DNA from: Leptonemataceae bacterium
GTDB lineage: Bacteria; Spirochaetota; Leptospiria; Leptospirales; Leptonemataceae
NCBI GenBank assembly: GCA_965227295.1
Contig: OZ245742.1
Span: forward strand, 5,024,001-5,088,000
Reading direction: 5' to 3'
DNA length: 64,000 nucleotides
The notes under the pieces were generated by a model that searched no databases, was not told the origin of the DNA, and saw nothing but the letters and a program-made list of their open reading frames with translations. The position numbers and the translations under genes were made by a program. The stretch's first letter is position 1. Every line of letters starts with the position of its first letter. Of the stretch, positions 7,406 through 10,668 are shown one piece after another.

Positions 7406-7688
7406 ATATCTTACCACGGCGCTCCACAATGTCGATCGCAACTTTCACAATCTCCTCTTCCGAAAGATAGCGGGCCATGTGTGCCACTTCTTTCGTGACG
7501 AGGTAGTGGTTCTCGAACTCCGTCCGCCCCGCTTCGCGAAACGGTTCTTTAAGCTCCACTTCCGTATTGTCCGGCGTGAGTTCCCTGCCCGTCAATGCAC
7601 ACTTGTAATCCTGCTCCTCCATCAAACGCCAAAAGTGTGCGGCGAAAAATTTGAGCGATCGTTCTTCTTGCTTTGCTTTAGCCATCAT
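7371..7688 (-). CDS. Degenerate HNH-like protein (transposon cargo)
   Basis: AAGGAG RBS; QDYKCALTGREL...ELKEP..EAGRTEFENHYLV parallels the HNH pattern C..G..L...DHxxP..GG....N..L but lacks the first His. Confidence 0.55.
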   Translation of the reverse strand: MMAKAKQEERSLKFFAAHFWRLMEEQDYKCALTGRELTPDNTEVELKEPFREAGRTEFENHYLVTKEVAHMARYLSEEEIVKVAIDIVERRGKIYGYEVKRKRGR

Positions 7689-9339
7689 CGTTCTCCTTAA
7701 TAGTTGTTGTCATCTTATTAATGAATGCCGCGCGTTCATCCCGGCTGATCTCGTATTTACCACGCGCCACAAACTCCGGCGCGTCCTCGGTTCGCACGCC
7801 CTCATGTTCGTCCGGCTGGTGCGTATACTCTTCCCAATCCCACGAGTAGAGCACGCCGGGGAGCACCGCCACGTTCCGCCGCACCATCGTTTCGACTCCG
7901 CGATTGCGTTTGATCTCCACGACTTCGGCGAGGCCGAGTTGAGCCCAGCGCCGCGCAATGCGAATCAACAGGTGCGACTGTCTTCCAATATCACGCGCAA
8001 TCCTGTTCACCGACTTCAGTTCCGCGCGGCCGAGCTTCTCCCAGAGCTTAAGTGCTTCGGCGTGATACTTACGCTCGTTCGACCGCCGCCACGCGACGCC
8101 CTCCCGCATGAAAGTCAGCCAGTCCAGGTGCGCCTGTTTCGCCGGGAACAGGTCGTTATCTTCGAATAATTCACGCAATTTGCCGCGAATCTGGCCCCGG
8201 GAATTCGCGAGATCGAGTTTCCCGCGCTCCTCGATTCGAGGCGGTTTATAGCGGTTTTGGGCGATTCTGAGGCGGAGAAACCGAGGGTCCCGGGGCAGCG
8301 ACGCCCCCACCGCCGGACGGCTATATCCGGGGTCTACATTCCCCACAAATCCCGTTTTTCTTAAACTTACTATAGTTTTAAGCCCGTAGACGTGGAGCGC
8401 CTTGAGTCCCGAGTATTCGTTCAGGTAGAGTTGGGAGTATTCCGGCGTGAAGTAGCCGTAAGCTGCCAGGAAGGACAACTTAATCATCCGCTGGTTGCCC
8501 TCGGCCACCTGGTTGTGCACGCCGTTCTTGCACCAGCGGTCTCGTGCCCAAACACTTCGTGACTTGTTCTTAGCGCGTGCGGAGTGATTCACGGCACGAT
8601 GATTCCGGTTGTAGCGCGAGAGCCACGGGTAACCGTCATCCGTGAACGTCGGCGCGTGGTTCGGCAAGAACGTCGTCAGCGGTTCAATGCTGCGTTGCGT
8701 CTGGTCGGGAACGCTGTCGAGTAAGACCGCCCCGCCCTTCAGCGCGATCGTATGCGCCAGCGTTCCAATCTGAAACTTGCCGCGCTCAACCGCTACTTTG
8801 TCGCTCAAGTAGATGCTCGCCGTCTGTCCGCCGTGGCGATGGCGGGAACGTCCGCCGTTACTGCGTTGCGTCGCGGAGAAGAGCGCCAGCGTGTCCATGT
8901 GCACCACCGGCCCGGCCTGTAGCTCCCGCGCATCCGCGTCTTCCGGAAGAACCTCATCACCAAAAGTGCTGGAAATCTCGGTATTTACAAGCTCTCGCAC
9001 CGCCGGCAGGAGGTCGGTGAGCATCAACTGTAAACGCCGCTTAAGTAACAGAGAAGTGGACTTAGAGACACCGAGGCGGCGGCGGATCTGCGCGGCCGAA
9101 ATCATCTGCGGGAACGCCTGCACCGCTTCCGTCAACAGATAGCCGAACGTCCACAGCGGGAGCTTCAAATGATGCAACGGCGTTCCCACCGTGCGCGACA
9201 TCTGGTAATGACAGTCGCCGCACCGAATCACCGTTTCACGATTCGCGACCGGCTTGCACAACTCGCCGCCACACTTTTCGCAGGCGCGCGGGTAGACGTG
9301 CGTCAATAGCTCCTGTGTCAGTTCGGTGTAGTACCGCAC
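7678..9339 (-). CDS. IS1595-family (ISXO2-like) DDE transposase with about 215-aa C-terminal extension
   Basis: Zn ribbon CEKC..CGDC, HTH SAAQIRRRLGVS, catalytic VHMDT / FTDDGY / HRAVNHS / NQVAEG. Confidence 0.85.
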   Translation of the reverse strand: MRYYTELTQELLTHVYPRACEKCGGELCKPVANRETVIRCGDCHYQMSRTVGTPLHHLKLPLWTFGYLLTEAVQAFPQMISAAQIRRRLGVSKSTSLLLKRRLQLMLTDLLPAVRELVNTEISSTFGDEVLPEDADARELQAGPVVHMDTLALFSATQRSNGGRSRHRHGGQTASIYLSDKVAVERGKFQIGTLAHTIALKGGAVLLDSVPDQTQRSIEPLTTFLPNHAPTFTDDGYPWLSRYNRNHRAVNHSARAKNKSRSVWARDRWCKNGVHNQVAEGNQRMIKLSFLAAYGYFTPEYSQLYLNEYSGLKALHVYGLKTIVSLRKTGFVGNVDPGYSRPAVGASLPRDPRFLRLRIAQNRYKPPRIEERGKLDLANSRGQIRGKLRELFEDNDLFPAKQAHLDWLTFMREGVAWRRSNERKYHAEALKLWEKLGRAELKSVNRIARDIGRQSHLLIRIARRWAQLGLAEVVEIKRNRGVETMVRRNVAVLPGVLYSWDWEEYTHQPDEHEGVRTEDAPEFVARGKYEISRDERAAFINKMTTTIKENDDG

Positions 9340-9639
9340 GTTAATGTGCGGGAATCGTAAATTAAAGGCGTCCTTGGCCCCGAGGCCAGAAGCAGCACCC
9401 GTTGCTTTCGCGGCCCCGGGGGGCGGGGTTTGGGCGCTCCGCTTCGAATTGGAAGAGAACAGAGCACCTCTTCCGCCGAGGACGCGGGCGAGCCGCGCGG
9501 GCGGCGGCGAATTTTGCGGGACGCGGCGCGAGGGCGGCGCCGATTCTAACGCGCTGCCGCCGATCGCAGCGGGGCGGCGCGATTTTTGAGGCGGGCGGGA
9601 GCTGCGGCCCTGTGTGGAATGTGAACCGGAGATCTAAAA

Positions 9640-10668
9640 CTATCCGGGGTCTACATTCCCCACAGTCCCGGTATTAATGCGGAAAAACCCGCGCGAAAGA
9701 AGCGGCTTAATGCCGTAGACTCTCAGAGCCTTCAGTCCCGAATATTCGTTGAGATAGAGCTGCGAGTATTCCGGCGTGAAGTAACCGTAAGCTGCCAGGA
9801 AAGACAACTTAATCATCCGCTGGTTGCCTTCGGCGACCTGGTTGTGCACGCCGCCTTTGCACCAGCGATCCCGCGCCCAAACATTCCTCGATTTGTTCTT
9901 AGCCCGCGCACTGTGATTCACGGCGCGATGATTTCGGTTATAGCGCGAGAGCCACGGGTAGCCGTCATCGGTAAACGTCGGGGCGTGGTTCGGCAGAAAC
10001 GTCGTTAGCGGTTCAATCGATCGTTGCGTCTGGTCCGGCACGCTGTCGAGCAACACCGCCCCGCCCTTCAACGCGATCGTGTGTGCCAGCGTTCCAATCT
10101 GAAACTTGCCGCGCTCCATCGCGACCTTATCGCTGAGATAGATGCTCGCGGTTTGTCCGCCGTGGCGATGGCGGGAACGTCCGCCGTTGCTGCGCTGCGT
10201 CGCGGAGAAGAGCGCGAGCGTGTCCATGTGCACCACCGGTGCGTCCTGTAGCTCACGGGCGTCGGTGTCCGCCGGCAGAACCTCGTCACGAAAAACGCTG
10301 GAAATCTCGGTGTTTACCAGCTCCCGCACCGCCGGCAGTAGGTCAGTCAGCATCAATTGCAACCGCCTCTTAAGTAAGAGCGATGTGGACTTAGAGACAC
10401 CGAGACGCCGACGAATCTGCGCGGCCGAGATCATTTGCGGGAATGCCTGAACGGCTTCCGTAAGCAAATAGCCGAACGTCCACAGCGGGAGCTTCAGATG
10501 ATGCAGTGGCGTTCCAACAGTCCGCGACATCTGGTGATGACATTCGCCGCACCGGATCACCGTTTCGCGATTCGCGACGAGCTTCGTTAACTCGCCGCCA
10601 CACTTTTCACAGGCGCGCGGATAGACGTGCGTCAACAGTTCCTGCGTCAGTTCGGTATAGTACCGCAC
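9640..10668 (-). CDS. IS1595-family transposase, short form (about 342 aa)
   Basis: Close paralog of 7678..9339 from VRYYTELTQ; GTG 10668 chosen by alignment; ends VGNVDPG-stop across the terminal repeat. Confidence 0.85.
   Translation of the reverse strand: MRYYTELTQELLTHVYPRACEKCGGELTKLVANRETVIRCGECHHQMSRTVGTPLHHLKLPLWTFGYLLTEAVQAFPQMISAAQIRRRLGVSKSTSLLLKRRLQLMLTDLLPAVRELVNTEISSVFRDEVLPADTDARELQDAPVVHMDTLALFSATQRSNGGRSRHRHGGQTASIYLSDKVAMERGKFQIGTLAHTIALKGGAVLLDSVPDQTQRSIEPLTTFLPNHAPTFTDDGYPWLSRYNRNHRAVNHSARAKNKSRNVWARDRWCKGGVHNQVAEGNQRMIKLSFLAAYGYFTPEYSQLYLNEYSGLKALRVYGIKPLLSRGFFRINTGTVGNVDPG

Follow-up and report, generated by a model that had tools for sequence, protein, structure and literature searches.

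The DNA analysed here, a 64,000-nucleotide stretch of contig OZ245742.1 from a Leptonemataceae bacterium (the window, whose positions are counted from its first letter), contains two related insertion sequences (ISs), A and B, which lie head to tail on the minus strand within the last 8 bp, stop codon included, of a gene for an MBOAT acyltransferase. A is a plain IS of the IS1595 type. In B, the transposase reading frame runs through its own right inverted repeat and continues into a conserved domain of 214 aa, and, by analogy with sister elements, B would be the left IS copy in a composite transposon whose right part has been lost. Taken as a whole, we consider it probable that the locus was built by a site-specific IS of the IS1595 superfamily with a nested end, A being the plain IS and B the left copy of a truncated composite. 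The anatomy of the two copies, the conserved fusion, the target site, the duplication around A and the pairs of identical IS copies in sister elements are established.

Two insertion sequences at the stop codon of an MBOAT gene

The features on which the argument is built are the following, with IRL and IRR denoting left and right inverted repeats and ORF an open reading frame.

10963..12351, minus strand: MBOAT (DltB/AlgI-like) acyltransferase gene, 462 aa, intact; insertion is into its last 8 bp, which include the stop codon
10963..10970, unstranded: target-site duplication copy 1, CTAAAACT, which includes the MBOAT stop codon
9642..10962, minus strand: short IS A, 1321 bp, with IRL at 10940-10962 and IRR at 9642-9664
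9640..10893, minus strand: transposase ORF of A, 417 codons when counted from the first ATG; a GTG at 10668 is another possible start
9634..9641, unstranded: target-site duplication copy 2, CTAAAACT, which doubles as the 8-bp spacer between A and B
8325..9633, minus strand: IS B, 1309 bp, with IRL at 9611-9633 and a nested IRR at 8325-8347
8325..8347, minus strand: nested IRR (the inside end), identical to the IRR of A at 23 of 23 positions
7678..9339, minus strand: long transposase isoform, 553 aa from a GTG start
7681..8322, minus strand: C-terminal extension of the long isoform, 214 aa, with a helical part, a predicted winged helix (about 7873-8094) and a terminal helix

The ends of both copies are defined by a single 23-mer, ATCCGGGGTCTACATTCCCCACA, which is found without mismatch on the plus strand at 8325-8347 and 9642-9664 (the IRRs) and which had no match in 100 dinucleotide-preserving shuffles. 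A third copy with three mismatches, on the minus strand at 10940-10962, is the IRL of A, whose two 23-bp repeats agree at 20 of 23 positions; the minus-strand 23-mer at 9611-9633 is the IRL of B. A is surrounded by a perfect 8-bp duplication (CTAAAACT on the plus strand, AGTTTTAG on the minus strand), and CTAAAACT is present just twice in the window, both times flanking A. B begins 8 bp after A, and its nested IS is 86.5% identical to A over 1256 bp.

The transposase frame of A ends in ...VGNVDPG and has no stop codon of its own, the TAG being made up of the last T of the IRR (9642) and the AG of the duplicated target. The ORF of B, by contrast, reads ...VGNVDPG-YSRP... and continues for 214 more codons; counted from the IRL, this frame is open for 651 codons from stop to stop. 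An earlier note on this DNA, made by a model from the sequence alone, had reported that the repeats at 9642 and 8325 both encode VGNVDPG, that the TAG of A is completed by the target duplication and that the frame of B continues for about 215 aa, and all three readings are borne out. Its further claim that flanking DNA sets the C-terminus is correct for the short form and wrong for the long form, in which a conserved domain lies beyond the IRR. Even in the short form the flank is not arbitrary: because insertion is site specific and the duplicated target supplies the stop, the stop lies 0-2 codons past the repeat.

The nested IRR sits in the DNA for the linker that joins the C-terminal domain to the core transposase (VGNVDPG|YS). 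Among the 13 long copies compared, it forms an island of DNA conservation (TGTG..GAATGTAGAC....GAT, plus ATAGCG beyond the IRR) amid a variable protein linker. Contigs assembled from two public sequencing runs of one study span position 8325 unbroken (6550-8785), although these runs are possibly the source of the window itself and are not independent support.

The target is equally well defined. The MBOAT protein matched TIGR04091 (LTA_dltB) with an E value of 1.6e-37, under the curated cut-off. The genome encodes 12 MBOAT paralogues, all of which end in ..YFQF or ..YFVF followed by the stop codon, and an element lies exactly at the stop in two of them. A left inverted repeat abuts an MBOAT stop codon at eight loci (the window, L002, L005, L006, L007, L008, L011=L022 and L014) from four genomes and two genera; the flanking 8-mers are AGTTTTAG, TGTTCTAG, TGTTTTAG, AGTTCTGA and AGTTTTGA, with the target consensus WGTTYTRR. 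Fifteen arrays were examined in the genus: eight start at an MBOAT stop codon, the other seven start at a conserved segment, U, that is internal under the composite model (see below), and none starts elsewhere. Empty sites were sought by comparing the flanks of the window with two congeners; the left flank had no syntenic match there, and the right flank, though without a syntenic locus, matched paralogous MBOAT pieces and one stretch of about 380 bp from the DNA upstream of the MBOAT gene.

In a second family of the order (L018-L021), the same fused transposase is accompanied by the accessory gene orf105 described below, and L018 carries a short and a long copy in tandem. The left flank of these elements is a different, non-MBOAT sequence common to two genomes, and the target may therefore differ between lineages.

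The C-terminal extension and its partner genes

When the extension alone was searched against 1.84 billion representative proteins, 19 relatives were recovered. All six full-length ones (447-587 aa) are transposase fusions, and three fragments start within a transposase C-terminus. The earlier note had proposed this search as a way of deciding between its two explanations, and the fused form of the full-length relatives favours the nested-end model. In other assemblies, including metagenome-assembled genomes of Leptospirales and one of Spirochaetia, the extension continues the frame of an IS1595-like transposase at nine of nine loci, six of which are complete (545-627 codons from stop to stop) and three cut by contig ends. 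Eleven further loci come from seven related genomes: tblastn detects the extension in nine, and for the remaining two the alignment with the full-length query reaches about residue 500. A protein search that covered lengths of 304-968 aa returned 13 matches to the extension, every one of them long (393-585 aa); 12 contain PF12762, and one of these also MarR_2, a MarR-type helix-turn-helix (HTH) domain. The fused proteins are named just 'transposase' or 'hypothetical protein' in the databases.

Judged by its substitution pattern, with ratios of nonsynonymous to synonymous change (dN/dS) of 0.08-0.26 in nine pairs, the extension is under purifying selection. Its identity among fused genomic loci is 29-52%, and the frame is kept although the linkers vary in length and sequence, even where a lineage lacks the VGNVDP motif.

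An AlphaFold model of the extension, with a mean confidence (pLDDT) of 81 and values above 90 for residues 61-160, has two long helices and, after them, a winged helix. All fold and profile matches are to winged-helix proteins (FurB, CodY, MarR, Zalpha and TFE) and are weak (E 0.014-0.13); among sequence profiles from the PDB, the extension matched TFE only (E 0.014). The possible HTH that had been pointed out in the earlier note corresponds, in this model, to the recognition helix of the winged helix. Searches of Pfam, NCBIfam and PHROGs gave no significant family match for the extension or for the products of the two genes that follow it:

7371..7688, minus strand: orf105, conserved accessory gene, 105 aa, possibly a degenerate HNH-like protein
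6719..7441, minus strand: orf240, third gene of the module, basic protein of about 240 aa, weakly conserved

In the window, each of these genes overlaps its upstream neighbour. orf105 lies downstream of the fusion ORF at all 20 loci of other genomes (9/9 and 11/11), with a mean column identity of 64% in the alignment and a conserved motif, ..TEVEL..P. It had no sequence match in Pfam, NCBIfam or the PDB, and a weak one to the PHROG endonuclease VII (E 0.044). A language-model search placed it beside HNH clusters with a score of 0.96, where the top cluster is possibly its own and contains HNH in 17% of its members; HNH endonucleases are defined by a beta-beta-alpha-metal fold with catalytic His and Asn/His, and the position that we take to be that of the catalytic histidine carries no histidine. 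An HNH-like endonuclease is thus a lead only. For orf240, tblastn gave matches of 23-32% identity at 11 of the 20 loci (six of the first nine), plus copies in its own genome. As a guess, the extension may bind DNA, perhaps together with orf105, in the choice of the target or of the ends.

Sister composites and the competing explanations

The argument for a composite comes from sister elements. In this genome and in a congener, a long left IS is paired, 18-29 kb downstream, with a plain IS copy that is 100% identical to its nested IS. In each of the seven arrays compared, U lies to the left of the first short IS, and the sequence of this IS is identical to that of the IS nested in the long copy before it. 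The three pairs of this genome (genome positions 5896423/5924296, 5925550/8754 and 10008/34459) are each identical at 1246 of 1246 positions, and the units that they delimit measure 29.1, 23.0 and 25.7 kb, each having TGTTCTAG on its left and right. A pair of same-IS copies around cargo, the hallmark of a compound transposon, is thus present in three sister units of this genome and four of the congener. In a tree of 26 copies, the short and long forms interleave, with nine label changes and no clustering, and six sets of identical rows mix both forms; from the identity pairs in this tree it follows that the long unit is a composite with two direct IS copies. Plain short ISs that end at the nested-type repeat are present in all three genomes of the genus. 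The earlier note had called for all genomic copies and their ends to be mapped; short ISs prove to end at the repeat, and long copies of the sister arrays are paired with identical short ones. Its suggestion that a long element contains a nested end that lets a short, cargo-free IS excise is supported by these pairs, by the constant fusion of the extension at the genomic loci examined and by its dN/dS. New relative to that note are the specificity for the target, a second IS copy closing the sister units, and the accessory genes.

One MBOAT stop-codon site of this genome holds three composites and two solo ISs, arranged head to tail over about 80 kb. Its outermost copy, at the greatest distance from the MBOAT gene, is frameshifted and has a mismatched spacer, which fits the entry of new insertions into the regenerated target beside the gene. 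A chain of the same kind spans about 100 kb in the congener. The cargo of sister elements includes a Gabija-like OLD ATPase with a UvrD helicase, MTaX1 with a C5 methylase, and Cu/Ag efflux functions with a MerR regulator, the last read from ORF translations without a family search. The 80-kb array extends from genome position 5,896,415 to 38,228 across the start of the record (L001-L004) and holds a 13-kb exact duplication and an 8.4-kb duplication at 99.7% identity; the Cu/Ag efflux genes and the Gabija-like OLD ATPase and UvrD helicase pair are among its cargo.

We propose the following mechanism. The IS inserts site-specifically into the last 8 bp of MBOAT genes. The ORF of B passes through the inside end, adding the 214-aa helical and winged-helix domain, with orf105 and orf240 following. 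In intact sister elements, the order is the long left IS, cargo, an inverted left-end fragment, U with a further module (E2), and a directly repeated plain IS, whose IRR would serve as the outer right end. Use of the IRL with the nested IRR would move the IS alone, giving a core transposase without the domain that is closed by the stop of the target, and use of the IRL with the distal IRR would move the whole transposon of 18-29 kb. Each insertion would renew the 8-bp target beside the MBOAT gene and, because of this regeneration, insertions would stack head to tail, always with the same spacer. We infer the ends used in transposition and the order of the insertions from the arrangement of the copies. 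Going further, and much more tentatively, one may picture a compact single-transposase DDE system addressed to MBOAT stop codons that has two switchable modes and in which the domain boundary is a transposon end; the long isoform and its HNH-like partner might direct the target or the choice between IS and cargo mode, and the target-terminated short isoform might drive or restrain spread.

Downstream of the three-gene module, the window contains the internal parts that recur in the sister composites:

6399..6618, plus strand: inverted fragment of the left end of B itself (IRL' plus leader), 220 nt at 93.7%
6291..6398, plus strand: U, a conserved segment of about 110 bp abutting the IRL junction (...GCGCAT|ATCTCC), whose outer part is a hairpin motif
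4306..6290, minus strand: group II intron in the outer hairpin of U (RF02005, 130.7 bits at 6013-6254)
3162..4303, plus strand: E2 module, with orfX (3213..3740), a ribbon-helix-helix-like ORF (3638..3940) and 12/13-bp tandem repeats at about 4100-4200

Within the inverted fragment, 181 nt (6399-6579) are 99% complementary to 9453-9633. What comes after the fragment in sister elements is in every case the U/E2 sequence and not varied target DNA. The inner truncation point of the fragment varies, being at about 220 bp in the window, 217 bp in a second lineage of the genome and at least 330 bp in L005, L006 and L012, where it extends into the transposase N-terminus. E2 is internal to the sister composites, and its homology to the sister copies ends at about 3162. 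A target duplication was sought across IRL...IRL' and at the outer edge of U, and none was found.

Several points weigh against the reading that we prefer. With the DDE_Tnp_IS1595 domain (PF12762), the window transposases scored 22.8 bits (A) and 22.5 bits (B), both with E 1e-4 and below the cut-off of 27. Ten of the 19 relatives of the extension are short proteins without transposase residues, known as database records alone, and Foldseek with the model of the extension returned nothing at E <= 0.001. B has no second IS copy in the genome, the nearest being A at 86.5%, and is thus no pair of same-IS copies bracketing cargo; nor is there a matching duplication around it or a third CTAAAACT, and its flanks differ (ctaaaact, as against ctgcgcat beside the inverted fragment and acggctat beside the nested IRR). 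Because of these two absences, the view of B as a truncated composite relies on analogy with the sister elements. The public-run contigs displayed neither excision nor circle joints and hence no direct sign of movement, so that we infer the use of the nested end from copy patterns. The duplications around the composites fit the model but are no independent evidence for its segmentation, because all array spacers are the same 8-mer; it is the identity pairs, not the flanking repeats, that carry this argument. The composite model assigns no role to U or to the inverted left-end fragment, and in the more distant lineages L018-L024 there is no inverted fragment within the DNA examined.

The nested-end composite has to be weighed against three other explanations. 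The most serious, which we nevertheless consider unlikely, takes B to be a complete 3235-bp transposon (6399-9633) with long terminal inverted repeats, the mobile unit being IRL...IRL', as with the outside ends of Tn5 and Tn10. Such a unit would contain the whole three-gene module, and the 181 nt of its arms match at 99%; the sister arms of 217 bp are 100% identical within an element and share the same inner boundary, yet are about 80% identical between elements, which suggests that arms are kept matched. However, no element has a target duplication across IRL...IRL', the constant U/E2 sequence stands where varied target DNA would be expected, the inner truncation point differs between lineages and the identity pairs favour a composite of direct repeats. 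It is far less probable that an internal start, or coupling, just past the repeat yields the extension as a protein of its own, with the continuous frame incidental. Gene callers did report short proteins starting inside the extension (P0005, P0006 and P0007), but there is no conserved start codon at the junction, conservation begins a few residues past the repeat (at about residue 5-10 of the extension), the frame is held across differing linkers, including those of lineages without VGNVDP, and six full-length fused proteins are on record.

The earlier note had also considered that the IS creates in-frame fusions with target genes, which here would mean that B inserted by chance into an unrelated host gene and that its frame reads into the remnant. 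The IS frame is open through its end, so that fusions are possible in principle, and the ten short homologues without transposase residues speak for this explanation. The same in-frame fusion, with variable linkers, is nonetheless found at all genomic loci examined, the extension is 29-52% identical among them and constrained in dN/dS, the same two genes follow it, and on the other side there is no 5' half of a disrupted gene, where instead the MBOAT gene is intact. By the conserved fusion, the dN/dS values and the constant downstream genes, a chance fusion is ruled out, with hardly any probability left to it.

Further observations concern the internal segments and the rest of the window. U (about 95-110 bp) is always located between the hairpin of E2 and an IRL (window 6398/6399; L001, L003-L005, L012 and L015-L017), and the U|IRL junction is the same everywhere (GCAT|ATC) and has no target duplication. 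Hairpin copies free of an IS run into other DNA, and a search for a reciprocal junction gave none. The idea that the outer hairpin of U is a third inverted repeat was rejected, as the similarity is not conserved between lineages. The group II intron is a later, unrelated insertion into U; it also matched RF00029 at 4307-4381 (33.9 bits, under the gathering score of 40), contains a reverse transcriptase ORF (4407..5720) and is represented by a multi-copy contig of the public runs (4306-6293). Four copies with equal RF02005 scores are present in the genome. The copy in the window directly follows a GTGGCCACA...TGTGGCCAC hairpin, and because the same hairpin precedes the copies near genome positions 34,052 and 4,555,063, hairpin-directed homing is suggested. 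E2 is also multi-copy (window 3162-4303; genome 7.2-8.6, 21.0-21.8, 29.6-31.5 and 4,546-4,552 kb), with an ORF of about 175 aa, a ribbon-helix-helix-like ORF, a terminator hairpin and 12/13-bp tandem repeats of a copy-specific unit; it often occurs as inverted pairs, and two copies adjoin sequences resembling the 3' ends of tRNAs. Positions 1-2846 of the window hold the 3' part of a gene for a large coiled-coil protein (2..2467, minus strand), of which a 96.8% copy lies at genome 750,433-753,278 and an 86.6% copy near 2,349,143. From the repeat scan only, 40,800-45,300 and 49,450-53,650 are diverged copies (70-85%) of a segment of about 4.5 kb, 8.4 kb apart, and 55,800-58,300 contains five to seven tandem units of about 330-430 bp.

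Comparison with known mobile elements

For annotation, these results mean that the 553-aa ORF is neither a broken gene nor an artefact, and that the 'missing' stop of the short IS is normal. An IS-boundary caller that halts at the first pair of inverted repeats will overlook the composite, and one guided by the ORF will run past the end of the IS. The locus offers a clear example from nature of a protein-domain boundary that is also a transposon end and, because the two coincide, one locus would give two transposase isoforms and two mobile units. It also presents an IS1595-type DDE transposon with a precise target at a gene end, where the gene stays intact and the target is regenerated. If the winged-helix domain or its small partner is the targeting determinant, the element would achieve site-specific insertion with a very small system. 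Through the pile-ups, cargo for metal resistance and defence against phages collects at one address, over about 80 kb in this genome; should the two-mode system hold, the self-regenerating target would explain why resistance and defence genes accumulate over some 80-100 kb at the end of one gene.

Likeness to the IS1595 family is seen in the catalytic domain of relatives, a CxxC...CxxC N-terminus, a one-ORF short form of 1.25-1.3 kb and the 8-bp target duplication, which is the figure of that family. Five of the eight relatives scanned reach the cut-off for DDE_Tnp_IS1595 (L023, 49.4 bits; P0016, 39.7; L001, 37.4; P0012, 35.1; L005, 27.0); P0014 scored 18.2, and P0004 and P0008 gave no match. 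The N-terminus of A has a weak Zn_ribbon_8 match (E 0.052), with CEKCGG...CGDCH visible in the translation. Members with passenger genes are included in the family under the ISfinder classification. The present elements differ in that the long isoform carries a 214-aa winged-helix domain matching no Pfam, NCBIfam or PHROG family, the right inverted repeat lies inside the ORF, two conserved accessory genes are present, and insertion is specific to MBOAT stop codons and leads to head-to-tail pile-ups. At the level of titles and abstracts, the literature gave no account of an IS1595-type transposase with this extension, of an inverted repeat nested in the ORF or of targeting to MBOAT stop codons.

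Tn9, with IS1, is a compound transposon of directly repeated ISs, and Tn5 and Tn10 exemplify the logic of outside and inside ends. As in these transposons, two IS copies here bracket cargo, and either the IS alone or the whole unit is movable in principle. As with IS50R and IS50L, the two copies encode different forms of the transposase; here the forms differ by a whole conserved domain, because the frame of the left copy runs through the inside end. In contrast to Tn9, Tn5 and Tn10, all composites contain a fixed internal module (the inverted fragment, U and E2) and share one specific target.

Tn7, which inserts at the safe site attTn7 downstream of glmS, is a functional analogue only: in both cases insertion occurs at the 3' end of a gene that is left intact, and repeated use of the site gives rise to arrays or islands. 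Tn7-like transposons have a TnsA/TnsB/TnsC core with a TnsD/TniQ target selector. No TnsA/B/C/D-like genes were seen among the module ORFs, although no search directed at these families was made, and the three module proteins match no Pfam or NCBIfam family besides PF12762. Unlike Tn7, the elements described here have a single DDE transposase of another superfamily, and it is the 8 bp of the stop codon itself that are duplicated and that also terminate the short transposase. We rate the combination as a variation on what is known of the IS1595 family, of compound transposons and of safe-site insertion.

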